The position numbers were made by a program, and so were the translations under genes. A stretch of 64,000 bases of DNA from Dictyostelium discoideum (taxonomy: Eukaryota). The stretch covers positions 2,880,001 through 2,944,000 of the forward strand of contig CM000151.3 in NCBI GenBank assembly GCA_000004695.1, in the 5' to 3' direction. Shown here in pieces: positions 1 through 28,500 of this stretch (position 1 is the first letter of the stretch; every line of letters starts with the position of its first letter). The notes under the pieces were generated by a model. The model was not told the DNA's origin. It saw nothing but the letters and a program-made list of their open reading frames with translations, and searched no databases.

Positions 1-682
1 TTTCATCAATACACTTTGAATTTGTATTTGTAGTTGTAGTAGTTGTCATTGTGGCCGTCGTTGCCGTCATCATGGTCGTCGTCATTGTATATTCCTGTAT
101 ATTACTACTACTACTACTATTACTATTATTATAATTTTGTGAATTTAATGGTGGTGTAGTTGTTGCACTAGATGGTAAACTATTATTATTACAATAATTA
201 CTTTGATTGTTATTATTTTGATTATTTTGACTATTTTGATTATTTTGATTATTTTGATTATTTTGATTTTGATTTTGATTAACTATTTGAACCATACCAT
301 TAACATTTTTATAATAATTTGAATAAGGTAATGAGGAACCTGTTTGAGGATCGAATAAAGTTAAAATTGCCCATGATTTAAATTTACCAGTTTGATCAAT
401 TTCTGAAGGTGTATCTTGTTTTTGAAGATAGTTTAATAGATTATGTTTTTGTTGATTAAATATGGTTAGATCAGGTGTTGAACCAAGATAAGGTGCAGAA
501 ACAAAAATTGAATAATGTGGTGAACTGAATTGAACTGCAACCATAAATTTAATGCCATATATGTTATTAATTGGATCAAAGTATTCCTTTTTCTTTGAAT
601 CTGCTATTGTAGTTTTAATAGTGATACAATCAACTATTAAACCAATATGATATGGATTCTTTTGAATTTTAAAATTATTTTG

Positions 683-724
<42 letters not shown>

Positions 725-733
725 ATTATTTGA

Positions 734-775
<42 letters not shown>

Positions 776-1195
776 ACCATTAACTGATGGTCTAAATATA
801 TCAAATGGTAAATCTCTTTTTGAAAGTTGATCAATTACAATACGTATCTTTTGTACAACCCGACTAATTGTAACTTGAGTAACGTTAAACATTTTACTAA
901 TGTGTGTTGTGCTTGATCCTGCTTTACTAAATGCTAAATATAATAATAATTTATCGAAATTATTGAATTTATTCTTTTTGAAATCACTAAAATAATGTTT
1001 ACAAACTTCACATAATACCAAAATTTCCCTCTCTGTAAAATTTATAATTTCATTAAAACTATTCTCTTGTTTTAATTTTTTAAATATATTTGAATATTCT
1101 TCAATATTTAATTCTGAATCTTCACAATTATTATTATTTTGATTATTTTGATTATTTTGATTATCATCACTATAATATTCATCATCTTCTGAAAA

Positions 1196-1264
<69 letters not shown>

Positions 1265-1533
1265 ATTATTATTATTGTTATTATTATTATTATTATTATT
1301 ATTAAATGATGATTTTGAATTTAATGTTGGTGAAGTTGATAAAGGTGTTGTTGATGCTTTTCCTTCAATATATTGTTTCTTTTTATCTAAATATTCAACC
1401 AATTCTCCAATATTTTTGGCAATATCGGGTTTACTAAATTGAGTTTGTGTTTTTATTGGTTGATACTTTGAGGGTTTACTATTTGGTTTTGGATCTTGGG
1501 TGTTTTATATCCATTATAATTGTCTTTATTGGA

Positions 1534-1623
<90 letters not shown>

Positions 1624-1647
1624 AGTACTATTAATATTATTATTCAT
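1..1647 (-). mobile_element. Harbinger/PIF-type (HARBI1-like) DDE nuclease/transposase-like ORF, partial; it runs off the left edge of the window. HTH around 870-960, DDE_Tnp_4-like core around 330-640, N/Q-rich spacers encoded by (AAT)n.
   Basis: Codon-by-codon minus-strand translation gives one frame open from the TAA at about 1505-1507 down to position 1 (>480 codons). It contains 'LLLYLAFSKAGSSTTHISKMFNVTQVTISRVVQKI', comparable to the HARBI1 HTH '[35 protein letters not shown]'. It also contains 'GLIVDCITIKTT...YFDPINNIYGIKFMVAVQFSSPHYSIFVSAPYLGSTPDLTIF', comparable to HARBI1 'GVVDCIHVAIKAP...[39 protein letters not shown]'. This ORF is absent from the supplied ORF track. The only ATG-initiated ORF here (1453..1647, poly-Asn) is in another frame, and no credible donor/acceptor pair joins the two, so a frame break or unusual start near 1500 is unresolved. 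Confidence 0.45.
1526..1625. repeat. (ATT/AAT)n coding microsatellite, representative of many in this window
   Basis: A perfect (att)33 run. Equivalent runs at 660-780, 1195-1310, 3822-3910, 16960-17065, 31200-31400, 47400-47515, 50455-50520 and 61180-61245 are translated as poly-Asn inside ORFs. Confidence 0.9.
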
Positions 1648-1802
1648 ATTTTTTAAATTATTACTATTATTGCTATAGTAATATTTTAATTTTTAAATTG
1701 TAAATCTATTTTTTTTATTTTAAATTTATATATAAAATATATAAATTATTATTATTTGGTTATTGTTTGTTTTTTTTATTTTTTTGGTTTTGGTTTTTTT
1801 CA

Positions 1803-1833
<31 letters not shown>

Positions 1834-2032
1834 CTGTTATATCTATTTTTTTTTATATCAATTTTTTTTTTTTAATTTTTTTTTTTTTTAATTTTTTAAA
1901 TCTTTTTTTTTTTTTTAAAAAAATTTTTTTTTTTGTCTGTAATGGACAAAAAAAAAAAAGAAAAAAAGTTGTGAAAATAGTCTTAAAAACTTTGTTGGTG
2001 CCGACAGTGAATAGTTTGAATTATTAAAATAC

Positions 2033-2092
<60 letters not shown>

Positions 2093-3009
2093 TTTAGTTT
2101 ATTATTATTATTTATTATTATTATTATTATTATTTTACTATTTTTATTATTATTATCATATAGATTTTTATTATTATTTTTATTTTTATTATTATTTTAA
2201 TTATTATTTTTATTTTTATTATTATTATTATTTAATTTAAATTACAAAAAGATAAAGGTAAAAAAAAAAATGCATGTGTGAAATTTTTGTTGGAAAAAAG
2301 TTTATTTACTTTTTTTAAAAGAAAAAAAAGTAAAAAACAATAATACAACAAGATTAAAATGAGTTTGTTTGGAGTGGTATGACAATGCTGTTGTTGGAAA
2401 TGCATTAAACAAAAAAAAAAAATTAAAAAATTAAAAAAAAAAATAAAAAATTTGAATTTTTTCGATTAAAAAAATTTTTTTTTATTTTTTTCAATTTTAT
2501 AATCAAAATGGAGTCGTTTTGAAAAAAAAATTGTTTAGAAAGGTAATGGGAGCAGAAAAAAAAAAAAAAATGTTAAAAATAGAAATTAATTTTGAAGTTT
2601 TCAAAAAATTAAAAAAAAAAATAAAAAAAATAAAAAAAAAAATAAATAAAAAATAAAAATAATAATGATAATTAATAAAAAAAAAAGAAATAAAATTAAA
2701 CAAATAAATTTTTTTAAAAAAAAAAAAAATAAAAAAAAAATAGTAAAAATAAAAAAAAAAAAAAAAAAAGAAAAAAAATTATTGTGTAAAATGGTTTTAA
2801 AAAATATCTTGGTTTTACAAAAAAACCCTGCACAAAAATAAATAAAAAAAAAAAAAAAATAAAAAAAAAAAAGACAAGTCTGCCATGATTTCTCAATTCC
2901 AAATTTTTTTTTTTTTTTTATTATCATTTTTATTTTTTTTTAATTTTTTTTTTCTTCCCACTTGTCCATCAAATTTTAAATATCTTGAAAGATGGGGCAA
3001 TTCTATTTT

Positions 3010-3067
<58 letters not shown>

Positions 3068-3210
3068 AAAATCAAAAACACATTTTTCCCATTTTTCCAA
3101 AAATTTTTTTTGATCAAAAAAAAAATAAAAAAAAAATAAAAAAAAAAATAAAAATTAATTTTATTTTTTTTTTTTTCAAAAATAAAATAAAATAAAAAAT
3201 AATAAAATAA

Positions 3211-3823
3211 ATGTTTAAATCTTTTGATGGATTAAAATTATCGAATTCAGAGTTAGAGGGAAGGTATATTATAGCAAATAGAGATATTGACATTGGAGAG
3301 AGTATATTAAAATGTAAATCATATTTTGCAGTTACATGTGAAGATTTTAAAAAGAATAGTTGTTACAATTGTATAAAGTTAATTAAATCACCATCACCTC
3401 AACAAGTACCAAGATGTTTTGGATGTAATGAAGTTTGGTATTGTAGTGAAAAATGTAAACAAGATAATCAAGCAAAACATCAACATTATGAATGTGCATT
3501 TTTCAACAATATAAAATCACCAAAATTAATTCAAAATTCAAAACTCGATTTCGATTCATACTCTGAAATCAGAATAATACTTGGTTTACTCTCAAGATAT
3601 TATCAAGATAAATTATTAAATAATAAATTCAATTCATCAATAATAATAAATAATCAACAAGATGATGAAGAAGATTTTATAAAAGATACATTGGATGGTG
3701 TATTAGATTTAGTAGAAAATGATATAAATGAAGAAACAAATAGTGTAGCAAAAGAATATATTGATAATATTATTGAATATATTATAAATATATTAAAATT
3801 AACAATAAATAATAATAGTAATG

Positions 3824-3913
<90 letters not shown>

Positions 3914-4452
3914 TTGAAGAATTAATTAAATTAATTAGACCATTAATTCAAAAAGTTAGATGTAATCAATTTGGAATTTGGACAAAGAATGATAAATGTA
4001 TTGGTATGGCAGTATCACCAAGTAGTAGTTATTTTAATCATTCATGTATACCAAATTGTGAATCGGTTAGAGATGGTAGTGATATGACATTTAAATCATT
4101 ATTTCCAATTAAAAAAGGTGACCAAATTAATATCTCTTATTTGGCATTAGATAAATCAACTAAAAGACGTAGAGATTATTTGAAATTTGGTTACTACTTT
4201 CATTGTCAATGTCCAAGATGTAATTCAACAGATATTGATCCAACTGGTAAATTAGAGGATTCATTAGATAATTGGATTTCAAAATTTTATTGCCATCAAA
4301 AGAAATGTACAGGTTTATATTATTCAAAATTAAAATTATCACTACAATCATTAACCAACATTGATAATCATGAAATTCAATTATCATGTTCAACTTGTAA
4401 TGATCAATTAATTGTTAATTCAAATTTTTATTTAAATAAACCAAATTATTAA
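3211..4452 (+). CDS. SET and MYND domain (SMYD-type) lysine methyltransferase, copy A, 413 aa, single exon
   Basis: Intact ORF. SET N-region 'GRYIIANRDIDIGESILKCKSYFAV'. MYND finger 'CYNCIK..CFGCNEVWYCSEKCKQDNQAKHQHYEC'. SET core 'NHSCIPNC'. Post-SET 'FHCQCPRCN'. Internal (AAT)30 poly-Asn tract at 3822-3910. Confidence 0.85.
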
Positions 4453-4697: not shown

Positions 4698-5858
4698 ATG
4701 TTTAAATCTTTTAATGGATTAGAATTAAAAAGTTCAGAGAATGAAGGTCGTTATTTAATAGCAACTCGTGATATTCAAATTGGAGAAGATTTATTAAAAT
4801 GTAAATCATATTTTGCAGTTACATCAGAAACTTTAAAAACAACATCATGTTTTAATTGTATTAAACAATTACCATCAGTTATTAAATTATCATTAAAATG
4901 TAATCAATGTAATGAAATTTGGTATTGTAATGAACAATGTAAAAATGAAAATATTAATAAACATCAACATTATGAATGTAAATTTTATAAAAAATTAAAA
5001 TCACCAAAATTAAAAGTTTATCCAAATTTTGATATTGAAACATTTACAGAAATTAGAATGATCGTTGGTTTGTTATCAAGATATTATCAAGATATTTTAT
5101 TAAATAATAAATTTATTGAACAACAATTAAATAACAACAATAATAATAATAATGATAATGAACAATTAACAAATACATTAGATGATGTTTTTGATTTAGT
5201 AGAAAATCAAGTTACAGAAGAATCAAATCCAGCAGCAAAAGAAAGAATTGATTCAATCGTTGAATTTATAAGTGAATTGTTTAATTTAGTATTATTAGGG
5301 TCAACAACAACAAAATCAATAATTAATAATGATGATAAAATTGAAATGATTAGGAAAATTAATGAAAAAAGTAGATCAATTATACATAAAACTAGATGTA
5401 ATCAATTTGGAATTTGGACAAAGAATGATAAGTGTATTGGTGTTGCAGTATCACCAAGTAGTAGTTATTTTAATCATTCTTGTATACCAAATTGTACAGA
5501 TGTTAGAGATGGTAGTAATATGACATTTAAATCATTATATCCAATTAAAAAGGGTGACCAATTGACAATATCTTATATTGAATTAGATCAACCAATACAA
5601 GATAGAAAAGATGAATTAAAGTATGGTTATTACTTTGATTGTATTTGTCCAAGATGTAATGGTGATTCAAATTCAATTGATTCAATGGATAATTGGATTT
5701 CAAAGTTTTATTGTTCTCAAAAGAAATGTACAGGTTTATATTATTCAAAACCAATGATACCAATTTTAAATACATTAACTTCAAATCATGAAATTCAATT
5801 ATCTTGTTCAAATTGTAATAATATTAATATAGTTACACCTTCTTTTTTTAATAAATAA
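4698..5858 (+). CDS. SET and MYND domain (SMYD-type) lysine methyltransferase, copy B, 386 aa; tandem paralog of 3211..4452
   Basis: Same architecture and the same N-terminus 'MFKSF(D/N)GL' as copy A. 'NHSCIPNC' and 'CICPRCN' are present. Lies about 250 bp downstream of copy A in the same orientation. Confidence 0.85.
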   Translation: MFKSFNGLELKSSENEGRYLIATRDIQIGEDLLKCKSYFAVTSETLKTTSCFNCIKQLPSVIKLSLKCNQCNEIWYCNEQCKNENINKHQHYECKFYKKLKSPKLKVYPNFDIETFTEIRMIVGLLSRYYQDILLNNKFIEQQLNNNNNNNNDNEQLTNTLDDVFDLVENQVTEESNPAAKERIDSIVEFISELFNLVLLGSTTTKSIINNDDKIEMIRKINEKSRSIIHKTRCNQFGIWTKNDKCIGVAVSPSSSYFNHSCIPNCTDVRDGSNMTFKSLYPIKKGDQLTISYIELDQPIQDRKDELKYGYYFDCICPRCNGDSNSIDSMDNWISKFYCSQKKCTGLYYSKPMIPILNTLTSNHEIQLSCSNCNNINIVTPSFFNK

Positions 5859-6385
5859 ATAAATAATTATTTTAATTTTCACTCTTTTTTTAAATTTTAT
5901 TATTATTATTAAGCTTGTTATAATTTATTTATTTATTCTTTTTAGGAAAAAAAAAAAAAAAAAAAAAAAAATAGTTTCTATTTGTTTTAAAATTAAAAGA
6001 TGAAAAGAATATATTAAACATTAATACTTTTCCATTTTATATAAAAATGGAAATTTTTTTTTTAATTAACACTCTTTTCAATTTTAATATATCAAACAAA
6101 TGAGTAAATAATTGAGGTATCATTTAATTTAAAAAAAAAAAAACAAGTAAATTGTTTGGAGATATTATAAAAAAAAAAGATTAAATAATAATAATTTTTA
6201 AAATCTTTAATATTTTTAAAAAATTTATTAATTTATTTTTATTTAATGTAAAATAACAATAAATTTTTTTTTTTAAAAATTTTTAAATATTTATTATGTT
6301 TGTTATAAATATTTTATGTTTCATTATTATTTTTTTTTATTTTTTATTTTAAATTTTTATTTTTTATTTTTTTTTTTTATTATTA

Positions 6386-6678
6386 CTAATTTTCTAATTG
6401 TACATCACAATTATCTCTACATTTTTGCATTAGTACAACGCATTTTGACCATTCAGTTTTACAAAATTCTCTATTATCATCAACACAATCACTATAACAA
6501 TCACCATTTATTCCATTTGATGATATTATCATTAAATAAACCACTAAAAAAATACAAAAAAAGAGAGTTAATTTCTAAAAGATTAAAATTTGTTTTTTAA
6601 AAAAAAAATATTTTATTGTTAATAAAAAATATGTATAAATAAATAAAAAAATTGTTAAAAAAAATTTTATTTTACCAT
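6386..6678 (-). CDS. Secreted 6-Cys mini-protein A, 63 aa (signal peptide plus C-x3-C-x7-C-x6-C-x6-C-x3-C)
   Basis: Exon 1 is only the ATG (6676..6678), followed directly by a GTAAAA donor. Acceptor 'cttttag' precedes exon 2 (6386..6574, stop included). Protein: MKLTLFFCIFLVVYLMIISSNGINGDCYSDCVDDNREFCKTEWSKCVVLMQKCRDNCDVQLEN. Without the splice the ORF has no signal peptide and falls below the ORF-track cutoff. Confidence 0.5.
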
Positions 6679-7020
6679 TATTCTATTTTTATTTTGTTTC
6701 AATAATTAGATTTTATAAATTAAAAAAAAAAAAAAAAAAAAAAAAGTTAAAACCCTTGTCAAATTTAAAAATCTTTTTTTAAATTTTTGTTTTTATTTTA
6801 AAATAAAAAAAAAAAAAAAAAAATATTAAAAAACAAAAAAAAAAAAAAAAATAATAGTAATTAATGGGTGGTATTAATAAAGTTTTTTTCATATAATTTC
6901 ATTAATATTTATACCAAAAACACCCACAAAAAAGGAGATCTTATTAATTATTACCATTTTTTGAAATTATATACATAATTACCCCCAACAAAAAAAAAAA
7001 AAAAATAATTATTTCTTTTT

Positions 7021-7056
<36 letters not shown>

Positions 7057-7232
7057 CTTTTTTATTTATTTTTAAATTTGATTAAAAAAAAAAAAAAACA
7101 TATTATTACATAAAAAATTTAATTATTATTTTTTTAAATTTATATTTATTTTTAATTCATTGATATGTTTTAAAATTTTCATTTATTATTATAATTATTA
7201 TAATTGATATTATTATTATTTTTAAAATTTAT

Positions 7233-7424
7233 TTATTTTTGTTCAATACCAAATTCAATATTACAACTTTCTTGGCATTTACCAACAACTACATCACAAA
7301 GAAATTGATCCTTTCCACAGTATCTAGTATTCTTTTTGAAGCAATTTGCATAACATTCATTCACATTACCAAGGGAAAAACTTATTGTTATTATAATAAT
7401 AATAATTACAATCAAGATATTCAT
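7233..7424 (-). CDS. Secreted 6-Cys mini-protein B, 63 aa; paralog of 6386..6678
   Basis: ORF in track: MNILIVIIIIIITISFSLGNVNECYANCFKKNTRYCGKDQFLCDVVVGKCQESCNIEFGIEQK. The Cys spacing is identical to peptide A (gaps 3,7,6,6,3) and there is an N-terminal hydrophobic signal. Confidence 0.55.
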   Translation of the reverse strand: MNILIVIIIIIITISFSLGNVNECYANCFKKNTRYCGKDQFLCDVVVGKCQESCNIEFGIEQK

Positions 7425-7646
7425 TTTGTTCTACAATTATAAAATTTTGTTGAGAAAATAAAAAAAAAAAAAAATAAATGAAAATAATTAATATTTTAAA
7501 ACGTTATTATAAATAATACCACATTATCCATACCATTTTTTATAGTATACTATTATTTTTTTAATTTTACTGTTAATTTTAAATTTATAATTATTAAATA
7601 AAAAAATAAAAAAAAAAACTTTGTTTTTATAGTGATAAAATTAAAG

Positions 7647-7683
<37 letters not shown>

Positions 7684-8074
7684 AAATTAAAAATATATTT
7701 GTTTTTTCATTAAAATGAATTTAAAGAAAAAAAGCTACCCTAAATTCTACTTTAATCATCATCACATATGAAATAAATCATTATCTAAAAGATTCAAGTA
7801 TGGGTATATATAAAAATTTTAATATACTTACTTTTTGATTATTTATTATTTTTTTTTTATAATAAAAAATATGTCTATTAGATTATTTTATTTTATTTTA
7901 TTTTATTTTTTTAGTATCAATATTATTATTATTATTACTATTTGTTTTTATTATTTTTTTTTTTGTTTTTTATTTTTTTTTTTTTTATTTTTTTTTATTT
8001 ATTCATTTTCCAAATTGTCAATGTTTCATTCACACTAATTTTTTTATTTTTAATATTTTATTATTTTAATTTTA

Positions 8075-8174
8075 NNNNNNNNNNNNNNNNNNNNNNNNNN
8101 NNNNNNNNNNNNNNNNNNNNNNNNNNNNNNNNNNNNNNNNNNNNNNNNNNNNNNNNNNNNNNNNNNNNNNNNNN
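8075..8174. other. Assembly gap (100 x N)
   Basis: A run of exactly 100 'n' characters. Confidence 1.
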
Positions 8175-9560
8175 TTTTTTTTTTTTTTCCTAAAAACCAA
8201 AAAAATAACCAAATAAATATTATTAGTATGGAGATGACTTTTTTATTTTTAAAAAAATAAAAGTAAAAAAAAGTTATCGGTCCATTTGTATTTTTTTTTT
8301 TTTTTTATTCATTTTTTCTTTTTTTTTAAATTTAACTGTTTGCCTCATTATTTATAATAATAATAATGATTATTAATGATTTTAAAATTTTTATTTTTTG
8401 TAGTTTATTTATTATGTTACCCCCTTTTTAATTTTTAATTTTACTTTTTATTTTTACTTTTTTACTTTATAAAATTTTTTATTTTTTTTAAATTTTTAAA
8501 AATATTAACTAGGTAATTTTATTTGTAAATAATAATAATAATAATTTTGTATTAAAATAATTAATTATGTATTTTGATAAACAAAATGATGTTTCCCTTG
8601 GTATGACCTTTTTGTTTATATTCTAATTTTTGTTAATCATTTAAGGTTTCAATAGGGTGAATCTTTTATTATATTTTCTATTGTTCTAGAAGGTTTACTT
8701 TAATACTTGCTTTTGGGCAGATATTTTAAGTGATAATGGTATAGTTTTTTTAGTTTGTAGCTCTTTACTCCTTTGTTGTTGTTTAGTGTAACTTTATTTT
8801 TATTTTTATTTTTATAAATATTATTTATAATAATAAAATTATAATTTTTTTAAAAACTATTATCATCAACAGTCATACAATTTCCATAGCAGTTAAACAA
8901 GTAAAAATAATTTATAAATCACTCTAATCATTAACATAAAATAGTTAAAATAATAATAATAATAAAAATAATTATATATAATGATTATATATAATGATAA
9001 AAGTTCCTTGTTTTTTTTTTTTTTTTTTTCAAAAATCAAAAATGTAAATAATTTAAAACTTTAAAATCTTTGTTTTAATTAAAACAATATTTTTCCTTGG
9101 TTTTATAATTATTAATGTTTTTTTTCCTTTTAATAAATAAAATAAAATAAAAAATAAAAATAAAAAATAAAAATAAAAAATCTCCTTAAAATTTTTATAC
9201 TTCTTAAATAATTAATTAATTATTTATAAAAAATAAATTGGATTTATTGGACATACAAAGGTTTTTTTTGTTGTTTTTTTTTATTTTTTTTAGGGGGTGA
9301 CATAGAATTTCATTAATTTATTTCATCAATATTTTATCAACTACAGCAACAAGCATTGATGAGATAATAAATCAAATAAAAAAATAAAACTATTTAATTT
9401 ATTTTTTTCCTATAATCTTTAATGAAAATACTTGTTTAAAATAACCTTTGTTCCACCTTCAAAGTTTTCCATTAATACGAATATTTCAGGTTTTTTTTTT
9501 TTTTTTTTTTTTTTATTATTTTAAATAACCCAACCATATCTTTTTTCTATTTTTATAATT

Positions 9561-14717: not shown

Positions 14718-15038
14718 TTAATCAAAATAACCTAAATATCTCAAGAAAAGAGCCCTGTCTCCTACTTTTTTAATTAAATCTTTCCATTCATATTCAGTGA
14801 TTGAAAAAGCAGTTTCGAAATTTGAGATTGAATTTTCTTCAAATACTTTGGCAATTGCAGTTCTTTGAGTAGGAGAAAGTGGGATATTAATAAACCAAGA
14901 TAAAAAACTGTCATTTAATTCAGGATTATCAACAATCTCAACTCTTGTCAATTTGGCAGAGTTTGTTGGATCAATTTTAATTTTAATATTTTCAGGTTCA
15001 GTTTCTTGAGACTCATCCATTGTTTCATCAATTTCATT

Positions 15039-15073
<35 letters not shown>

Positions 15074-16968
15074 GCTGTTGTTGTTGTTGTTTTTGTTGTT
15101 CATCTTCTGAAGTAGAAGTAGTAGTGGTGGTAGTAGTTGTAGTAGTTGAGGTAGTAATAGCATCTTCATTTGAGAAATCATTATTGTCAATATTCATTTG
15201 ATTTTCAACTAAAACTTCATCTTCTTTTTCTTGTTTTAGAGTTGATTGTTTGTAAATGAATAAAATTGAAGTTCTTTTTTCAACCTCTAAATTTTCACTT
15301 CTGTTAATGAATGATACTGGATCATTGGTTGAACATCTAATGCTTGCATTTTCATTGTCATCTGAGGAATTAATATGAATTGAACTATGATTTCCATTTG
15401 ACATTAGCACAGATTCTAATACATAGGTTAAATCATCACCACCACTACCATCATCATTTTGAATTTCAAATGAATTACCAATTTTAATGAATTTTGGGAA
15501 ATCGATAGGTTTGAAAGTTGGTTCACCATTTTTAATTCTATTTACAGAAACTAAAAGATGAGATGGTGAGCTAATTAAAACTGTTTTACGTTGAACTTGT
15601 TTATTACAATTTTTACATTGCTCAATTGAATTATTTTGAGAGTAGAGTGTGTTGGCAATATTCTCTTCGATATTATTTGAATCAATGTTTACAGTAAAGT
15701 CCAAAATAAATTGTTGAAGATTTGGTTTTATTAATTTCTTACAAACATTACATATATGTTGACAACTACCAGTGAGAGGAGTGAATATGGATGATGATAT
15801 TTTTTTAATTGATTGTAAAAGTAAAGCTAAAATCTTTGAAGGTGATAAGAAGGATGAAGATGGAGTTGAATTTAATAATTCCATTAATTCATCATTTGCT
15901 TCAATGAATTCCTTAAATAAAGTATCGACTATGAATGGTTCTTTTAATTTTTTACTTGAAATCGATTTGAAATGTTGTAACTCTGTATATAAAGAGAAAG
16001 AGAATTTAACATCTTCAATATTTAATAAATCAATTAAATTGAATCTTATCCATTCTAATAAACTCGTAGCAAAGATTGGTATTGACGATGATGATGATGA
16101 TGTTTTGATAGTATGATCCTTTAATATTAACATAGTTTTAATTAATGATTCATCCTCTTCTTTATCATTTCCATCATTACTAATAACTTTAACATTTTTA
16201 GTTAGATATTCATTATTGTATGATACTAATTCTTTAAGTTTCAAATTTTGATCAGCTTTTTTAAACATTGGATTAATGGATCTATTATCTTGAGATTGTG
16301 AAGGGGTTGAAGCTCTTGGATTGAAAAATTTCTTTTTAGTAGTGCCATTTAAATCATCAATTGTTAATTCTTTGAAAATGATTAAACCACCACCACCACC
16401 ACTACCAAATCTACTATTTTTATCATTTGTAACTTCACCAATTTCATCCAATTGAATGTGTAAAACTGTTAGAGTTTCTTGAAGTGTACCCATAAATGTT
16501 GCATAATAACTTGAAGTCATACTTGGTAAAACAAAAGTAAAGATTGATAAATTGGTTGAAGGTTCTTTGATATCACGTAATTGGAATTTATTAATTAAAT
16601 GTAAAAGTGGTAAATCTGGTTGAATGGATCTTGCAATTCTCTTTGAATCTTCAGAAGATGCTTTTTGAATGATTTTACCTAAATAATCTTTCCAAAGAAT
16701 TGAACGTTCTCGAATATCAAATTCACAATCCTTTAAGATACTCTCTGAAATTGATTTAAATTGAATTAAATAGTCATTGTTTGGTTGAACTGGGTCAGGA
16801 ATAATTGAACTATAATAATATCTAAATCCAAGGTAACTATTTATAAATATATCACATAGTGATAATACTTGATTTACATTAATAACTGGTAATAAATCTT
16901 TAATAGCAAAATCTAATTTAAATGATTCAAAAACATCATCACTCATTAATTCAATATTATTATTATTA

Positions 16969-17066
<98 letters not shown>

Positions 17067-20000
17067 TTTAAAATTTGAAAATTGTAATTGATTTAAATTT
17101 AAAGTTTTAATAAAATCTAAATTTTCTTGTTTTGAAATTAAAAGTAAAATTTGAATTAAATATCTACCAAATGATTCTAATTGATCATTATTTAATTTTG
17201 ATTTACATCTTGAACGTAATTTAATCTTTATAGTTTCTTCTATTTCATTATTAAAACCTGTAAATGTTTCAATCTTTTCAATTAATTCATTTAGTTCTTT
17301 AATAAATTCTGGTTCAACAGTTGGTTTTTTAATTTTATCTAATAATTTTTCATTAACTTTAGTAACTACTTCAGTTAAACCATAATCTTCATCGTCATCG
17401 TCATCATCATTATCATTATCAACTTTTTGTTCTTGTGATTTTTTAATGGTTGGTTGTTTTTTGAATTTTAAATCTGTTTTAAATCTAATTAATTGATTTC
17501 TAATTACTTTACCATAGAGATATTGTAAGATGATTGAATTTTGAATTAATGACCAATCGATAGAACCTACAAATTTAGATTTATCAAGTACAAAGTATTT
17601 AGAGATCCAAGATGAATAATAATGATAGAAATCTTCAGGTTTAAAGTTTGCACCAATTAATAGATTATCACTACCAATTGTTGATGGAATATCACCAATA
17701 TCGATTTCATTATTAGTTCTAGTGAAACTCTCAATGATTTCAAGGATATCTTCGGGTAAATTGCCTTTATCCATTGAGAGTTGTAAAAGTTTACTTTGAG
17801 TATTTGCTAACCATTGATCGATTACACGAACGATACAACCAGGTTGAGTATCATGATAAAACATTTGACTGAGTCGTGATTTTTTTTCAATTGATGGTAT
17901 GATCGCTTCTGAACGTAATGCATTTGGACAAATTTCAATCTCTATATTTTTAATGATAACTGGCCAAATATTAAGCAAATCTTCAAAAGCTTTCTTTAAT
18001 GGAGCAACTGATTGAATGGTTTCATATTTATTGGTAATTAAATATTTAATACATTTTGTAACTGATTGGTCAATGAAATCTGGTGGTAATAAATTTGCAG
18101 TGAAACGATTAAAAGTATCAAGGAATTGAATCAATACTTTAAAGTGACTTGAGATACAAAGTTTGTTAATTTCATTGATAAAGGTTTTAATAATAAGGAA
18201 TTGTTGTTGTTCAGTTGCAGTAACCAATGTTTGAATGGTGAAATGAGGAATTATTAATGAGCTATAATTTAAAGTATATAGAGTTCTAAGCTTTAACAAT
18301 GAATCAAATTGTGGACTTGATGCAACAGTTTTTGCAAGGAAACGATTTTTAGAGGCGTTGGCATCATTTTTAACGGCAGCAAAAATTTGATTTAATCTAA
18401 CTTCATATGCATGTGATAGTTGTGCATTTGGGAAATTATCTAAAAATACACCTTGATTATGGAATGACTCTGACCAAATTGCCATTGTATAATTTGAAAT
18501 ATACATCCATGGATCTAATAATAAACCTTTAAGATCAGGATTTAATTCAATCTCTGTTATTGAAACCAATGCTCTATTTAATACATAATCGGATGGATTT
18601 GCAGAATCTTGAAAATTAATGAAATGACTTGCTCTATAATCTTGGAATGTATATTTTCTCATTGAGGCAGTGAATGAAATTACAGACCAAGTTGAAGCTA
18701 CAATTGAAAAGAAATCCAAACTATTACCATAATAAGTTTCATATTTTGCATTGCAATCAACCAATTGACCACCTCTTGAACCTGGGAAATATTTACCTAA
18801 ATTAAACATAAAAGGATCAACAGCACCAACAATAGCTTTTGAAAATTTACTAAGATGAGTATTTTCAGAACCAATTGAAATTGCAATGAAATTTATAATA
18901 ACATTTGCAACCTTTAATTGACTTTGATCAATTGAGGAGAGAATTTGATCGATTATGAAATTTCTATCGAATTTTCTTGTTAATATCTTTTTATAATGTT
19001 CTAAATAATTGAGTAAACCGAGTTGTTGTTGAATTACAGCATCATCAATGATAGCAATGATAAAGTTTATGAATTTTTGATTCTCTTGAGTTTTTAAACC
19101 ATTACCATTTGAAATATATTGATAAGATAAAATGAATAAAATGATTCTAATTAAACCTTTTTGTTTTGGAATTTTTGAATTAATTTCAAACAATTGTTTC
19201 AAAGAATTTAAATCTGCTAATTCAATGAATTGTTTTATATGAATATAGGTATCATTCTCTAATTTATAATGATCATCATAAACAAATGGTAAATGAAAAG
19301 TTTGATCTTTTGTAACTAATAAATTGATTTGATATTGTGATAAACCAATTGAATTCAATATCACTGGTGATTGGAATAAATCTAGGATCTTCTTTTCTTG
19401 AATGATTCTTGTGAACAAATAAACTTGATAAATGGTTGATTGTAAAATGGTTGAATCATTCTTATTATTTGATAGAATCATTCTTAATACATTTTGAATA
19501 TCTTTATTATTGATTAAACCATAGGTTGTCTCTAAATCATTATGATTTAATAAATCTGCAAAATGTTCCAAGAATATACAAGACAAGGATATCAATGATA
19601 CTCTTTCGAAAATGTTTACATTGATATCATTATCATCTTCATCAATTTCAAATGTTGAGAATTTACCATACTTTATAAAGAATTCTGATATTAAAGATAT
19701 GATTTGATTTAATTTTGCTTTAGATTGAAATTGTTCAAAAGAAATATGATAAAGAATATCAATTAATGGTTGATTTGGTAACAATTGTTTTCTCAATAAA
19801 TCCAATCCTAATTTGAGTTTATGATTTTGTGGAATCAATACTGATAATTGTTCAATTGTTTCATTGTTAATATAAGTTAATGGACCACTATGAATAGTTT
19901 TTAATAAAGATTTATTAATTAAGCTACCTTGATTAATCATATCAAATAATTGTAATTTCTTTTCTTCTCTAATGATACCATTATTATTGGTTATAATATC

Positions 20001-22518
20001 TTTAATTATAATACAACTCCAACCAATTGGTATTGAATTTATCAATGAATTTGGTATGGTATAATCATTATTTACAATCTTTAAGAAAGAATAAAGATTA
20101 TCATTATTTAATAGAATTAATGGTTTGATGATTTCTAAAATTAAACTTTTTGATGGTTTTGGTTCAATTTTCATTTCATTATCAATAAGATTGAAATAGA
20201 TATCCATTACTTTCAATAAATCTAAACAACGGAAATTTGGTAATGCACCAATTAAAATTTTCTTATTTTCATCTGGTAATTCGGAATTGTTGAATAAAAT
20301 CTCTACGAATAATTGATAGATTGAATGAATGTATGCTAATAATTCTAAAACTTCAATTTCATTTGGATCTGTTGTAATAAAGATTTCATCAACATTAATT
20401 CTATTGAAAAGATCTCTAACTATTTTAACCCATACAATGATTTCCTTATTTTGATCATCACCTTGTTTAATATTAAATGAAATTTGATCAATTTCTTGTG
20501 AAAGTAATTCAATTGTTAAATATAAAAATTTAGTTTTAATTAATTTAATATCATAATAATTAATATTTTTCTTTTCATTATTGTTTTGATTGTTATTGTT
20601 ATTGTTACTATTATTATTATTATTTTTAAAACCATCATTATAATAATCATCAAAAAATTCATCATCGTCATCATTATCATCATCATCATCTTGATTGTTT
20701 TTAAAAGTAATTAATATCATTTCTTTACATCTTTGTAATGCATATTCTTTATATGTTAATTGAAGTAATGGTGAGATGATATTCTTTAGGAAATCGATTG
20801 TTTCAACTTTAAATTCTTTAATGATCCAATATTGAATTATTTTCATTGAATTGGTAAATACTTTTTCATTAATTTTTTTAGTTTTATTTGTTGACTGATC
20901 AATATCATCTTCTTGATTGACGATTGTATAGGGTAATAATGAATCCAAGATTGAAATGAATAAATCTTTTGTCTCTAAACTTATACCCATAGTTCTAACA
21001 ACGAAATCATGTTTATATTGTTCGAAAAGATTGTCACTACCTGCAATGAAATGAATTAACTCTTCAATTGGATGATTGATAATATAGGAATAAATTTCCC
21101 CGTATACGACCTTGGGTTGTTTACTTTTAGATTCCAATATGATATTATCGAAAATTAAACTAAATTGACTTTCAAAATAATCATATAATGGTAGAGATGA
21201 TGGAATAGTTGTAATCTTTGGTAAAGATAAATGAATTGGTTCTAATCTTCTTTCAATACCAATATTCTCTGATAAATTATATTGTAATTTTGAAGTTTTA
21301 ATGAAAAGTTTAATTAAATTATAATTTTCTAAACTTGAATTTAAAATCATTCCATCAGTTGTTGATTCTCTAAGATTTCTTTTCTTTTTATTTCTATTAT
21401 TATTGTTATTATTATTTGAAACTTTTTCAAAATCATCTCTATAATTTTTTATAATTTGTAAAATTGTTGGAATTGAATTATAATTACAAATTGTTTTAAT
21501 AATATTTGAAGTTACAGGATAAAGATAGTTTGTAATTGAAGATTTAATAGCATCAATGAATGCACTTTGTTCTTTACCTGATAGAATACGTTGACAAATA
21601 TTTACTAAAATTCTTTGGAAAATCTTTTGATCTAACCAATGATCAGTGAAATTTTGAATGACAATTTGATACCATTCTGGATTTGTAGTGAAAATTTCAT
21701 TTAAAACCTCTTGTCTAATTGAAGCATCTTTATAGAATTGATGAATTTGAACTCTATTATTATTATTATTATTATTGTTATTGTTATTATTGTTGTTATT
21801 ATTATTTGGTGTTCTAATTGGTATCATTGGTAACTGTTTACAAATTATATCTTTTGAAATGGTTTTCAATTGATTCTTAACCATATCTCTTAGAATATTA
21901 TTAATTGGTTTTTGATTCTCTCTAAAATCATAATGATAACTTGTATTATTAAATATATTGAAATAATCATTTGAAAAACCATTGGTATTAGTTGTTGTAT
22001 CAACACCACAACTTGCAGCAATCCAATCTCTAATATCTTCTTCAATGATAGTTTCATAATGTTTATCAACTTGATCCTTTTCAAATTTAATACCTAACGA
22101 ATCGATATAAGTGAATTCGATTTCATTTAAAAAGATTGAATTTAATTTTAATGATTGTTGAGATAATGAGTATTCTGGTGGGTAATGATAAATTGTGATC
22201 AATGATTTGGATTCATTCATATCCAATAATAATTCAAATATATAATTCACTTGATTTTGATTACAATTGATCATATCTGCAATTACAATTAATATTCTTT
22301 CTTGTTTTGAATTTTTAAATGATTCAATAATCTTTGAACATTCTAAACTTGATTGAATTGAATTTAAATGAATGATTTTAATGAATTTTCCATCAATTGG
22401 TTTTTTATTACTACCACGATTAATCTTTGAAGGTGATCTATCAATATTGAATATTTCTAATGATTCACTTAAATATTCAAAATCGTCAAAATCACTTTCA
22501 CTTCCACCATTATTATTA

Positions 22519-22553
<35 letters not shown>

Positions 22554-25500
22554 TACACTATCTAACATTATTTGATCGAGATTTTCATTATCACCATCAT
22601 CATCTTTTGAAACCAATTTCTTATTTATAATTGATCTAACTAAATTATCACCTAAAATTTCAAGTAAAACTTCACCATCTTTAAAGGAAGTTAATGACAA
22701 AGAAGTTCTAGTGAAAATTACCCATTTATTTGAGATATATTCATTCATTGAATATTTAGTTGTAAATAAATTCTTTAAAAATCTAACTATACTAAAATGT
22801 TCTTGATTGATAAAATATTCCTTTAAATAATTAATTGGATAAATTGAATCTTTAATACGAATGATTGATTCTGGTTTTGCAATTTGTAATAATTTAAAAT
22901 TGAATAATGTTTGTGGTTCATTTTTAATTGAAGTTGCTGTCGATGTTGGTGAACTTGATAATAATTTATAAAATTCTCTCTTTTTAGAATTGGTAGTTGT
23001 TGAAACCATATCATAATTTTTAAAGAATTGATAAATTAAACTTGAACAAGTTTCAGTTGAAGAAAATCCAGCTAATAATGATTTTTTACTTGCTTTATTA
23101 TGAAGTGTATCAACGAAATGATTGGAGTACTTCACAAGGTTATTAAATAGATCGGTACTTGATTGATGCTTACTAATGAATTCTTGAGTTAATAAATCAA
23201 TTGATACTGTATACTTTTCGAATCTATTTAACCAAGGTAATTGAGTATTCTTTAATCTTGACATTGGCATATGAATGATAACTTTAAAGTCTGGATGAAC
23301 TGTACAAAATACTGAATGAGTACCAAAACTAATATTTGCAACCATTTGTAAACGATCACGATGTTCTGAAGAAGGTGTTAAAATAAAGTATCTATTGAAA
23401 ACTTCATAGAAACATGAATCAATCTTTTCACTATTGACCAATACAACGGTACCACCAGTTTCCATAATTGATTTAATAGTTGAAACACATTCTACCAATG
23501 ATTCCTCTGAACTATCATTTTCAAAACCACCAACTCTAACAATTGTTAAATTTTCAATACCAATCTCTTTTAGAATTGAAATGGATGATTCATTCTCTGA
23601 AGGATCAACGATCATCATATAACGGAAAGTTAATGAACTTGGATCTTGATTTGGTTTGATAACTTCAGCTAATGAACTCTTTATGTTTGCGATTGTATTA
23701 TCTATTGTGTAAAGTGATGCTGGTGGATCAACGTTTTGCTCTCTAAAGAATAATTGAGCCAACTGAATAAAATCTTGATTATTAATACCTTTGAAATTTC
23801 TTTCCAATGAATCCAATAATGCCAATGGGAAAGGTCTTTCAAGGTCAAGTTCTCTTTTAAGATGTCTTAAAAAGAAACAATAATCTCTTTGATGGAATAG
23901 ATTCTCTTTAGTATTGATTGAAAATTCATTAACTCTTTTGTAAGCTCTACATAGGGCATCACGAATTTTCTGTTCTTGAGCATCGAGATCATTTCTATTA
24001 TTATAGAGACAACCTACAACCAATGCTTTTTCATCATCCTCTGTCATTTTATCTGGATGAATTAAAATCATCATACGATTGGTTTTGGCAGCATCTAAAA
24101 TCTTATTTGATAGAATTACAATACCAACATTATCTTTGGCTTCACCAGTTTTATTTCCAACCTTATCTAAATAGTCATGTAATACTTTCATTGGTGAATT
24201 ATTTTCATCGACTAAACCAGCTTCATCAAGGAAAACCACGGATTTATATTTCTCTGCTTTCATAATTTTTTCACGATTAATTGCTTGTTCAAATTTAACT
24301 TGAATTTCAATATCTGAACTATGTTCAGTACATTGATATCTGAATGGTTCTGTCATTGGAATATGAGCCAATGGTGAATTTGGTTTTTGTTTTTGTGTTG
24401 GTGAATTAATATTATCCAAAACGATTGTAAATGAAATTGTTTTTGAACAACCTGGTGGACCAACAACCAATAAGGGTACATTACAATTGATCGATACGAT
24501 AGTACAGAAAACATTTAACATCAATGATTCAGTTTTAGCAATACCATCTGGTAATTGAATGAAATCACGACACAATGATGAATACTTTTTATGGAATATA
24601 TAAGTGAATGGATTTCTACCACCAGCATTATCTAAATTATTGCCACGTTGATCATTATAATAATTTGAAAATATTTCTAATATACCTTGTCTATTTTTAC
24701 CAGGAATCATTCTAATGATATAAGTTAAATACATTGAAATGATTAATGATATCCAATGTCTATCTTCAAAATTTAATTCTCTAATTTCTCCACAATTTAC
24801 TAATGATTTACCACATTGATCTTCCATAAAGAAATTATAGAGATCGATTGCTCTCATGATATCTCTAATACTAACATGAGTACGATTTTGTTTAGTTTGA
24901 CGTAAATAATCTTGACCCAATATGATACACTCTTGAAGTTGATTGGAATGATGTGGTTGCATTTTAGTTTTCTTTTTAAATAATGTTGACAAGAATGAAC
25001 GTTCACTATCATCAAATTCACCAAAATCAAAATATAATTGTTCCATTGATTGTGGTGTTTCTTTTACAATGAAATCTTGATTACCTGATGCTGAAATTTG
25101 ACCAGTGAAATCGATTGAATCATTGGTTGATGATTTCATCTTTGGATTCATTGCGCCAATGATACGAATATTTGATGATGCCAATTGTTTACCATCCAAT
25201 GTACCATCAATGAATAACTCTGTAATGATTGCACAAGTATCGATAGGAGCAGTATTAAATTCATCAATGAAAATTACGAAAATCAATGATGAATTAATGT
25301 TTAATAAATCTTTTGCTGTATTTTCCAATTCTTTCATCTTTTTTAAGAATAAATCACTTGTATACTTTTCATGCATAATTAATCTTTGGAAAAGACGTTT
25401 AAATTTAATGGAGCCAATATCTTTGATTGCTTGTTCCATAGTTTCTTTTGAATCAATAGTTCTTGTATTCTTTTTTAAAGAATCTAATAATGAACCTTCA

Positions 25501-28500
25501 CCAATTTGAATTAATGGATTAACTAGGACCTTTAGAATGAATTGTCTTATATCTTGAAATAATAAATTTGAAACCTCTGCATTGATATCTGAAATTTTTG
25601 AAGCAACTTGAACCATTTCAGCTATTTCAGGATCAAATAGCTCTTCAGTGAATTCTTTTGGGAATTGTTTCATTTTTGCATTTAAAAATTGTTTTAAATC
25701 AAATAGAATATCTGGTAATTCATCAATCTTTGCATTGATGATAGCAGCATAGAAAAAGAAACTAAAACTTTTACCAGTACCTGTATCACCTTTTAAAATA
25801 ATAGCTCTTTGATTTTTAATCTTTTCATGAATGATTAAAAGACGAAGTGCAAACTCTGGTGTCAAACAATATCCATATTGTTTGGTTAAATCTGATACGA
25901 TAAAAGTACGTGAAACAATACCAAATGATTGAGAGATGGTAGCATAAAACATTGAAGTATTGGCCGATGCAGTCTCTAGCGTATGTAATGATGGTACTTT
26001 GTCATATAGATCTGTTTTCTCTCTAAAATCAATGAAATCAATTTGAGTTTGTTCAAATGGTCTATTTGCATCATCGGTTATCACTGAAATTGATCTTGAG
26101 ATAATTAATGGTGGATTACGCCAAAGTGTTTTCACTGAACATATAATTGGATCTGCCAATTTAACACATTCAACAACAAAGTATTTATAGAGAATCTCTG
26201 GTGTAACTTGTAATTTCATTCCCATTTGAGCCAAATATTTATAGTAATTGATATATTTATCCAAAAATAATAGTCTATCATTTAAATAGGCAAAGAAATT
26301 CTTTTGGCATTGTTTATAACGATTATCACGTAAGAATGGAATTTGAGCACCATAAATTGAAACTACATGATCATAATAAACATTACCAGGTATAACTTGA
26401 TTGTTTGTAATGATTGTTGGATTCGTTGGAAAAGCACCACCATTTCCTCCTAAATAAGACATACATTTCATTTCTTGAATACCATAATTCCATGCTAATT
26501 CATAATTTATCACCTGAGAAATATTGTAAAGTAATGATAATGCATCTTCTGGTTTATCATTTGTTGTTTCTTTTAATTGTGTACCAATCTCTAAAAAGAT
26601 ATGAATATTTAAATGTTCACTTATATTTATAATTTTACCATTATCATAAATGTAACCATAGGTAATTAATGGATAAATAAATGTATAAAATTCTAAATAA
26701 TTGCAATAAGGTGAAAGATTTATATGAAGTAAAACACCTCTAATTGTATTGTTATTACTTTGTTGTTTTTTCAATAATAATGAATTTATTAAACCATAGA
26801 AATCTGAATAATTTGTACCAGGTCTAATTGATAAACGATATGCAATGAATTGAGATTGTTCCACTTGTTTCTTTTTTAAATCAATATATAGAGTTTTTCC
26901 AGTACCAAATTCACCAGATAATAAATTCAATTCACCTACCCCATACTTTGAATTTGTTTTTAACCAATATTGTTTTAATTGTTGATATGTACAAGCTAAT
27001 GGTTCTTCCCAACGTGGTAAAAACTCTGTGAAATTATCATTTTGACTAAATGATATAATGTAAACTCTTGCTAATTTTGATAAAGTTTGATTTGAAAAAT
27101 GTTCTCCAAACCAAGATAATAATGACTCTTTCTTTGTTGGTAATCCGATTAAAAAGAATACTCTATCAACTACATTCTCTACTAAATAAATGAAATCATC
27201 AAATTCATTTCCAAATTTACTACCATAGAAAACTTGACTTGGATGTGGGAATACCATTAAATTCATTTGAGTTATAAGTAAATCTAAATTCTTTTTATTT
27301 TGAACATGATAAAATTGTGGACCTCTATCATCACTACTATCTTCAATATCATCTTGATCTTGAAAAGTTTCATCAAATAAATTAAATAGCTCCATAATGA
27401 AATCTTTAGTTGATAAATTTCTATTTAATTTACCTTGATCTTGAGCGTTAACAATTGTTTTAAAAATTGTATCATTATTTAATTGATAAACTTTTGAATA
27501 ACAATATTTAATATATGATGAAACAATTGAAACTAATTCTTTATTTCTATTATTATTATTGTTGTTGTTGTTGTTGTTGATAATTATTTCATCCTCTTGA
27601 ATTAAGAAATTTTGAACCTTTGTAAATAATGATGAAATACCTTGATTTCTTAATAATCTAATTCTTTTTGAAAATGAATTAATTAAACCTTTCCATTCTT
27701 TAATTTTTTCAATTAATTCAATGTTATATTTTTTAATATCATCCATTAAGTTTGGTGTAATTTTCAACTCTATAAATTTATCTAAAAATTCGTAGTGAAA
27801 CATTTTTGTTGAAAGTATTGTGTGACTCTTATAAATTGAATGAAGTTCATCATATAATTTTTGAAATTCATCAACGGTAGCACGTTGAGCTTCTTTTACC
27901 TTTGCCAATTTCAAACCACGAATATAATCATCCAATGTTTCAGAGGAATATTCTATACCATTTACTTTAATATGCCAAACTGATGTTGAACTACCAATAA
28001 CATTTGAACTAAAGATTGAATCTGTTAACATTTCTTTTAATCTTGGTAAAATGGTTGAAATACTATATGCACCACCTGCACTTGAATATAATGCTCTCAA
28101 TTGAGGCATATTATCTTGAAGGAAACGAATCTTTTGATTAATATCCTCCATATCATGATGACGGAATAATTCTTTCATAACTGAACAAAAATTACCAAAT
28201 TTATAAGATTTTTGTGATGTTGGCACTGTTGGTGGTGGTGGTGAGGTTGCTGTTATGTTTTGTGAGGAATCATTCATTAATGAATCTTTATATGATTGAT
28301 TTTCAATTACTATTGGTTCAACAATACTAAAAGTTAAAACAGCATAATCAATTAAATTACTTGAGAAAGCATCATTTAAATTTGTACTAATTAATCTATT
28401 TCTTTCTGTGAAGTCCTTATTATCTTTAAAAGTTGAGTAGAATTCAATCAATTCCATTTGAATTACACTAAAGAATGGTATTTGATGATATTGTAATTGA

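Follow-up and report, generated by a model that had tools for sequence, protein, structure and literature searches.

Domestication of PIF/Harbinger transposases is already known in vertebrates, plants and insects. HARBI1 is reportedly a Harbinger-derived single-copy host gene under purifying selection; it keeps the Asp-Asp-Glu (DDE) catalytic triad, and its partner is the separately domesticated, Myb-like NAIF1. ALP1 of Arabidopsis is a domesticated PIF/Harbinger transposase that serves as an accessory component of Polycomb repressive complex 2 (PRC2), with DGA in place of DDE (PMC4671723, which also mentions HARBI1, as does PMC9392472). HDP1/HDP2 of Arabidopsis, PANDA of rice and the DPLG genes of insects are reported as recurrent PIF/Harbinger domestications into chromatin-related factors, usually with a transposase and a Myb-like partner domesticated together (PMC5339849, PMC9129072, PMC9710019). 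The literature searched holds no report of a domesticated PIF/Harbinger transposase from Dictyostelium or other Amoebozoa. Here, we describe a gene at the left edge of a 64-kb stretch of Dictyostelium discoideum DNA (the window, to which coordinates refer unless another sequence is named) that is very likely such a domesticated transposase: its position is fixed, transposon termini are missing, and purifying selection on it is strong. To judge from the gene-ID order of its neighbors, it is probably DDB_G0273593, on which no paper was found in the literature searched.

ALP1 and the gene described here are both transposase-derived host genes, conserved within their clade and presumed non-catalytic, in which two of the three catalytic residues are substituted. 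Unlike ALP1, the Dictyostelium gene would represent an independent domestication in a different kingdom, and its substitutions are milder (Glu to Asp, and a displaced second Asp). With HARBI1 it shares an origin from a Harbinger transposase and purifying selection, and it differs in that the protein has its own predicted helix-turn-helix (HTH), an altered triad and no linked partner open reading frame (ORF) in the flanks. With protist transposon proteins as its nearest detectable relatives, the gene is unlikely to be an orthologue of vertebrate HARBI1. In contrast to the transposase and Myb-like pairs that are usual for HDP1/HDP2, PANDA and DPLG, the source family of the Dictyostelium gene is single-ORF and no partner is evident. 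Sequence relationships thus make it most likely that this domestication was independent of HARBI1, ALP1, HDP1, PANDA and DPLG.

The gene was recognized from a reading frame of 501 codons on the minus strand, running from position 1504 to position 2 and still open past the left edge of the window. One thousand mononucleotide shuffles of these 1647 bases gave a mean of 53 codons and a maximum of 120 for the longest open stretch, and the probability of 501 open codons arising by chance from base composition is ~1e-23. An initial annotation of this DNA had claimed a frame of more than 480 codons that was absent from a program-made ORF list; the frame is confirmed, and its absence is mechanical, not biological, because that list leaves out ORFs running off an end of the source sequence. 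Translation confirmed the peptides on which the transposase assignment had been based, namely, LAFSKAGSSTTHISKMFNVTQVTISRVV (854..937), LIVDCIT (620..640), GSTPD (470..484), and WAILTLFDPQTG (338..373). The sole ATG-led ORF (1647..1453) encodes a poly-Asn product of 64 aa in a frame different from that of the 501 codons. An intron joining the two was considered and rejected, as there is no plausible GT..AG of useful length and the other assemblies differ by one base; the earlier statement that the poly-Asn ORF is out of frame and not joined by splicing is therefore correct. The parts of the gene seen in the window are as follows.

1..1647, minus strand: the part of the gene within the window, which begins with the start codon at 1647..1645 and is coding right up to the edge.
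1453..1647, minus strand: the ATG-led 64-aa ORF, whose first part (Met, poly-Asn, ...NGYKTPKI) is the genuine 5' end of the gene and which then reads on out of frame until it meets a stop.
2..1504, minus strand: the open frame of 501 codons, from translation of the minus strand.
1492..1493: the frame-break site, at which one base is missing (plus strand GG-ATC, compared with GGTATC in the assemblies L001 and L004 described below).

An intact allele is found in L001, which is the same locus from GCA_054883475.1. There, the gene is an uninterrupted 824-codon ORF (6018..8492, minus strand) that starts at the ATG of the poly-Asn ORF of the window. Position 1 of the window corresponds to L001 6845 and the stop codon to L001 6018..6020, which means that the gene, as had been suspected, runs off the window, with ~830 nt more coding sequence beyond position 1. 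In all likelihood, this region makes up the first two thirds, from the 5' end, of a D. discoideum host gene that has a single exon and is 824 codons long in the intact allele.

Homology to transposases is masked in the native sequence. When searched against Pfam, NCBIfam and PDB sequences, the native 501-aa translation gave only low-complexity noise, with no match to DDE_Tnp_4, and the Pfam match to HTH_Tnp_4 was weak (E=0.19). Once the poly-Asn linkers were removed, Pfam DDE_Tnp_4 (PF13359) was matched with E=1.4e-4 to 2.3e-4 and 21.3-21.9 bits, which is below the gathering cut-off of 24.8 bits and spans only positions 1-69 of the 158 in the profile. We therefore place the protein in DDE_Tnp_4 by transitive and profile evidence. 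A phmmer search with the 131-aa core (281..673) against 1.84 billion cluster representatives returned 63 proteins with a library-wide E<=1e-3 (best 1e-9). In a 63-row alignment of the query and its relatives, 47 members pass DDE_Tnp_4 (best 2.7e-20) and 18 pass DDE_Tnp_1, and PF13359 is precomputed on most of the relatives. When the linker-stripped full-length L001 protein was compared by hhalign to a profile of 25 long relatives, the two aligned with 99.95% probability and E=8e-38 over 311 columns, in an alignment that extends from the N-terminal helical module through the HTH and the core as far as the C-terminal helices. These results support derivation of the gene from a PIF/Harbinger-type (DDE_Tnp_4) transposase. 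The initial annotation had predicted an HTH followed by a DDE_Tnp_4-like core and had named the lack of a significant DDE_Tnp_4 profile match as what would speak against it. Homology at the profile level supports the prediction; the direct Pfam match appears only after linker removal and is borderline (21.7 vs. 24.8 bits).

Other searches returned little. The linker-stripped full-length protein found nothing relevant among PDB sequences, a word-index homology search with a stripped 249-aa query found nothing, and neither did a look-up for exact matches to the 824-aa product. Although the contig index has the Dictyostelium orthologues as called genes, they were not returned by word-index, exact or exhaustive representative searches, the likely cause being that poly-Asn-rich proteins cluster under unrelated representatives. 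The orthologues thus seem to be hidden in clustered collections, and the word-index and exact look-up negatives say little about annotation.

The alignments divide the protein into conserved modules separated by low-complexity sequence.

1358..1512, minus strand: a clade-specific conserved N-terminal block, GYKTPKIPKPNSKPSKYQPIKTQTQFSKPDIAKNIGELVEYLDKKKQYIEGK, which spans the frame break and has a ratio of nonsynonymous to synonymous substitution rates (dN/dS) of 0.02-0.09.
1196..1303, minus strand: the first poly-Asn tract, whose length varies between strains and species.
785..1108, minus strand: a helical module that corresponds to the N-terminal part of the transposase family and takes in the predicted HTH (LAFSKAGSSTTHISKMFNVTQVTISRVV, 854..937), with a weak Pfam HTH_Tnp_4/HTH_SB match at ~833..958.
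674..772, minus strand: a poly-Asn linker between the HTH module and the DDE core, which blocks the Pfam match on the native sequence.
281..673, minus strand: the N-terminal two thirds of the DDE_Tnp_4-type (predicted RNase H-like) core, with the Pfam match at 422..634 (E=1.6e-4, 21.7 bits).
629..631, minus strand: the first catalytic Asp, in LIVDCIT, which is retained (D in 35/36 in this column of the family).
338..373, minus strand: the degenerate second-Asp region WAILTLFDPQTG, corresponding to WAxLxDKGYxG in the family, with an Asp at 350..352 that lies two residues past the ungapped position of the second Asp.
2..280, minus strand: inserted sequence, rich in Asn/Gln and Thr, that splits the DDE domain by separating the second-Asp region from the helix that bears the third acidic residue, and that contains one conserved block, NSLPSSATTTPPLNSQN, at 134..184.
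L001 6747..6800, minus strand: the third motif, HRMTIDKYFGRLYGLWGI (RMTIDKYFGR), outside the window and ~60 nt past its edge.

Structure prediction, like the exhaustive search, used the window-encoded 131-aa core and a 282-aa fragment. AlphaFold2 predicts for the core a beta-beta-beta-alpha-beta arrangement with a pLDDT >90, and both modules are modeled confidently in the fragment comprising the HTH and the core. A fold search with the truncated core, which is incomplete in the window, found no significant structural neighbor. Between the second and third catalytic motifs, the low-complexity insertion amounts to ~100 residues. The protein also carries the basic motifs KSRKKDKK and, near the C terminus, GPFKKRKF, together with a conserved acidic C-terminal tail.

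Where a source is named, the relatives are from Balamuthia mandrillaris or protist transcriptomes; the remainder are from short environmental contigs. In Balamuthia, we identified the following element.

L009 5737-7527 and L010 5737-7527: near-identical copies of a 1.79-kb single-ORF PIF/Harbinger-like transposon of Balamuthia mandrillaris, with terminal inverted repeats (TIRs) and target-site duplications (TSDs).

The two copies sit on separate contigs, between flanks that are unrelated, and over a common 1787 bp their identity is 99.55%. Their ends are inverted repeats of ~80 bp beginning GAGTGAAAATGGGCATGATTG, and they are bordered by 3-bp TSDs, AAT in one copy and ATT in the other. At 1.79 kb, the elements have space for one ORF only. 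Near-identical copies with unrelated flanks, TIRs and TSDs show that the source family is a recently active single-ORF PIF/Harbinger-like transposon. The Dictyostelium protein has the same end-to-end architecture as the transposon proteins of Balamuthia and uncultured protists (P0004, P0096 and others; PF13359), including the C-terminal LLTNEHI helices, with an identity of 22-29% overall and up to 45% in the core. Unlike these 1.79-kb relatives, which have ~80-bp TIRs and 3-bp TSDs and keep the three catalytic residues in 35-36/36, the Dictyostelium gene has no termini, a fixed position, a remodeled triad, and ~450 extra residues made up of linkers and new conserved blocks. Other Balamuthia copies carry GenBank annotations that bear no relation to transposons, "Nup214/CAN component" and "COG complex subunit 3" among them.

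While its relatives are mobile, the Dictyostelium gene has stayed in place. Using neighboring genes as anchors, we recovered intact orthologues at the same position and in the same orientation, between SET/MYND genes and importin-alpha, from six assemblies besides the window, which together cover five Dictyostelium species or cryptic species.

L001, D. discoideum: 824 aa.
L003, wild D. discoideum: 747 aa.
L004, D. cf. discoideum: 829 aa.
L005, D. firmibasis: 932 aa.
L006, D. citrinum: 818 aa.
L007, D. dimigraforme: 818 aa.

The product in L003 (4100-4650) is called only to 747 aa, and there the acidic tail and GPFKKRKF are intact in another frame after a poly-Asn run; this early end is either a repeat-length indel or an assembly error. 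In a six-way alignment, the structured modules are nearly invariant and the poly-Asn/Gln/Thr tracts are free in length. Over ~404 non-repetitive codons, Nei-Gojobori dN/dS is 0.03-0.085 in ten pairwise comparisons, in which synonymous divergence (dS) reaches 0.71 and p values lie between 7e-9 and 7e-45. No module is free of constraint, the C-terminal module being held (~0.03) more tightly than the DDE core (0.07-0.15). The three alleles from the discoideum group differ by 20 changes that are synonymous and 10 that are nonsynonymous (p=2e-8). The initial annotation had attributed the preservation of the frame to selection, and the combination of this constraint with conserved synteny agrees with it.

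Neither TIRs nor a partner ORF were found around the gene. Extending the sequence leftward, as had been proposed, brought no TIRs to light: a scan of the gene flanks yielded only A/T low-complexity (poly-A/poly-T) pairs with ~70% complementarity, and in none of L001, L003 and L004 do the two flanks share inverted GC-containing 11-mers, for which shuffles gave a mean of 0.12-0.22. Nor did these flanks contain the companion Myb/SANT ORF that had been envisaged, since on neither side is there a non-low-complexity ORF of at least 50 aa. One copy of the gene is present in the 64-kb window and one at each orthologous locus examined. The earlier choice between "domestication or decay" can thus be narrowed, as synteny and constraint favor domestication, and decay of the gene as such finds no support, the break being a one-base, assembly-specific change. 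Three points weigh against a domesticated, non-catalytic transposase. The direct Pfam score is under the curated cut-off, with less than half of the profile covered. In D. purpureum, there is no copy within 10 kb of importin-alpha, so the gene is either young or was moved or lost there. Finally, catalysis appears from the sequence to have been lost, and an Asp-Asp-Asp centre that includes the Asp preferred by hhalign, two residues past strand 4, might nonetheless bind metal.

The frame break at the 5' end of the long frame, which the initial annotation had noted, is real in this sequence. It had been suspected to be a homopolymer or repeat-length error near 1500, a suspicion that does not hold, as the missing base lies in neither a homopolymer nor a repeat. 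Over 8 kb, L001 and the window differ by three SNPs (single-nucleotide polymorphisms) adjoining homopolymers, by the lengths of a number of homopolymer runs, and by a single additional base. This base is the only indel not of the homopolymer-length kind and the sole difference inside the ORF, the other 1,644 ORF bases being identical. When it is reinserted, the ORF runs from the ATG at 1647 to the window edge without a stop, and the L001 ORF is likewise uninterrupted; the interrupting stops that could have undermined the long frame are thus absent. Because six other assemblies (L001, L003, L004, and those of D. firmibasis, D. citrinum and D. dimigraforme) read through the site, the break is private to this assembly, most likely the AX4 reference, and reflects either a sequence error or a mutation in the lab lineage, between which the chances are roughly even.

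If the mutation is real, the strain behind the window carries a genuine pseudogene, with a one-base deletion in the AX3/AX4 lab lineage cutting the product after 64 codons; the long frame would then be a very recent relic in this strain of a gene that is functional in the species. We regard this as the most serious alternative, with somewhat less than an even chance of being correct. Lab strains accumulate private mutations, and the deletion lies outside homopolymers and microsatellites, where assembly errors usually fall, the remaining differences between the window and L001 all being homopolymer lengths or homopolymer-adjoining SNPs. It is weakened by the lack of a second disabling change in an ORF otherwise identical to that of L001, by the strong constraint on the gene, and by a reference error being about equally likely; moreover, L001 is probably AX2-214, as deduced from PMC12745789.

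In 36 long relatives, the catalytic columns are D in 35/36, D in 36/36 and E in 36/36. A canonical Asp-Asp-Glu triad is not present in the Dictyostelium protein: only its first Asp conforms to the family, its second site no longer has the DKGY motif, and at the third Glu has given way to Asp (RMTIDKYFGR). In the second column, MAFFT places a Ser, and hhalign brings in the Asp at 350..352 by way of a two-residue gap. Further family-invariant residues differ as well, with M for E in KKEVAV and V for E in LTNEHI. The six orthologues agree in every one of these states, showing that the active-site changes are old and maintained. The initial annotation had described WAILTLFDPQTG as a degenerate third catalytic region; degenerate it is, but it corresponds to the second Asp region, and the third lies beyond the window edge. 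The alignment of the triad to relatives, which had been suggested as a check, thus returned one residue kept, one whose context is lost, and one substituted.

A second alternative, that the domesticated gene keeps nuclease activity through an Asp-Asp-Asp centre and cuts DNA for its host as proposed for HARBI1, seems to us unlikely. Its appeal lies in the retained first Asp, the conserved Asp two residues past strand 4 that hhalign aligns to the second, and the conservative nature of a Glu-to-Asp change fixed in all species. Constraint on the DDE core (dN/dS of 0.07-0.15) and on the C-terminal module (~0.03) also speaks for it. The DKGY context that has gone is, however, invariant in 36/36 relatives, MAFFT puts Ser in the second-Asp column, other invariant acidic residues have been replaced, and ~100 low-complexity residues separate the second and third motifs.

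The gene could also be an autonomous PIF/Harbinger transposon copy, active now or recently, as might be suggested by a long intact ORF with an HTH and a DDE_Tnp_4-type core whose closest relatives are active elements. This is very improbable given that neither the position nor the orientation of the gene changes across five species or cryptic species, between which dS reaches 0.7, that no TIRs were found, that the second-Asp motif is lost and the Glu replaced, and that there are large clade-specific conserved additions. In rice PING, mutating any single triad residue drastically lowers transposition (PMC4671723). As for a spurious transposase likeness in an unrelated low-complexity Dictyostelium ORF, for which one could invoke the lack of a Pfam DDE_Tnp_4 match on the native sequence and the empty word-index homology search, its probability is negligible in view of the hhalign result (E=8e-38 over 311 columns) and the 63 library-wide significant matches, 47 of them DDE_Tnp_4 proteins.

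For the domesticated transposase that we favor, the following history can be proposed. The ancestor would have been a transposase from a family of single-ORF, PIF/Harbinger-type DNA transposons, and in other amoebozoans this family remains mobile. The transposon termini have been lost and the gene is held at one position, between the importin-alpha and SET/MYND genes, where strong purifying selection keeps all the non-repetitive modules and the poly-Asn/Gln/Thr linkers drift in length. The active site has been remodeled, with the changes fixed across the clade, and the protein presumably no longer transposes. Most likely, this protein acts as a nuclear DNA- or chromatin-binding adaptor in which the predicted RNase H-like domain is kept as a structural or interaction module. 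We propose this role because the predicted HTH is retained beside KSRKKDKK and GPFKKRKF, a putative RNase H-like domain, and conserved N-terminal and acidic C-terminal blocks, and because other domesticated Harbinger transposases (ALP1, HDP1) work in this way. A more speculative view, which we consider quite doubtful, is that the protein is not a passive scaffold and that a working but unusual Asp-Asp-Asp nuclease, or sequence-specific recognition of the old transposon ends, serves a programmed DNA transaction or the silencing of related elements in the D. discoideum species group. It would then be a lineage-specific genome-maintenance factor, hidden by a frameshift in the AX4 reference.

Whatever its activity, this is a strongly constrained gene in a leading genetic model organism that standard tools have missed because poly-Asn linkers defeat domain searches and, in the window, a one-base frameshift cuts the start codon off from the rest of the coding sequence. 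At this locus, the reference or its annotation probably needs correcting, and the gene could offer a tractable system for finding out what a remodeled transposase core does for its host.

The window, with ~20% G+C, belongs to D. discoideum chromosome 2 because the product of its ORF 4698..5858 is identical to "SET and MYND domain-containing protein DDB_G0273589" of AX4 and an atg4 exon also lies in it. The gene is flanked by importin-alpha (DDB_G0273595/Q557F4) and by two SET/MYND genes. The latter are tandem SET/MYND-type paralogues (3211-4452 and 4698-5858) with 72% DNA identity, the second being the exact AX4 DDB_G0273589. The assembly series to which GCA_054883475.1 belongs comes from Holland et al. 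2025 and includes the lab strain AX2-214 (PMC12745789), and we infer both that L001 is AX2-214 and that the window is the AX4 reference.

Very long poly-T/poly-A runs occur at 1650-3210 and 6700-7650, for example, >50 T from 2036. In every homopolymer-length difference from L001, the window is the longer of the two, which suggests homopolymer compression in the long-read assembly. Downstream of the stop codon of the gene, ~1 kb left of the window edge, there are two direct copies of a ~140-bp unit of higher G+C (L001 5400-5560 and 5730-5870), 75.5% identical to each other. The pair is found in D. discoideum L003 and D. cf. discoideum L004 as well; it is absent from the loci of the other species examined and from the window and has no Rfam match, and Rfam gave no match on the gene or its flanks either. 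Elsewhere in the window, at 14718-29228 on the minus strand, there is a 4836-codon open frame; it belongs to a called product of >5500 aa, for which no Pfam hit is recorded.

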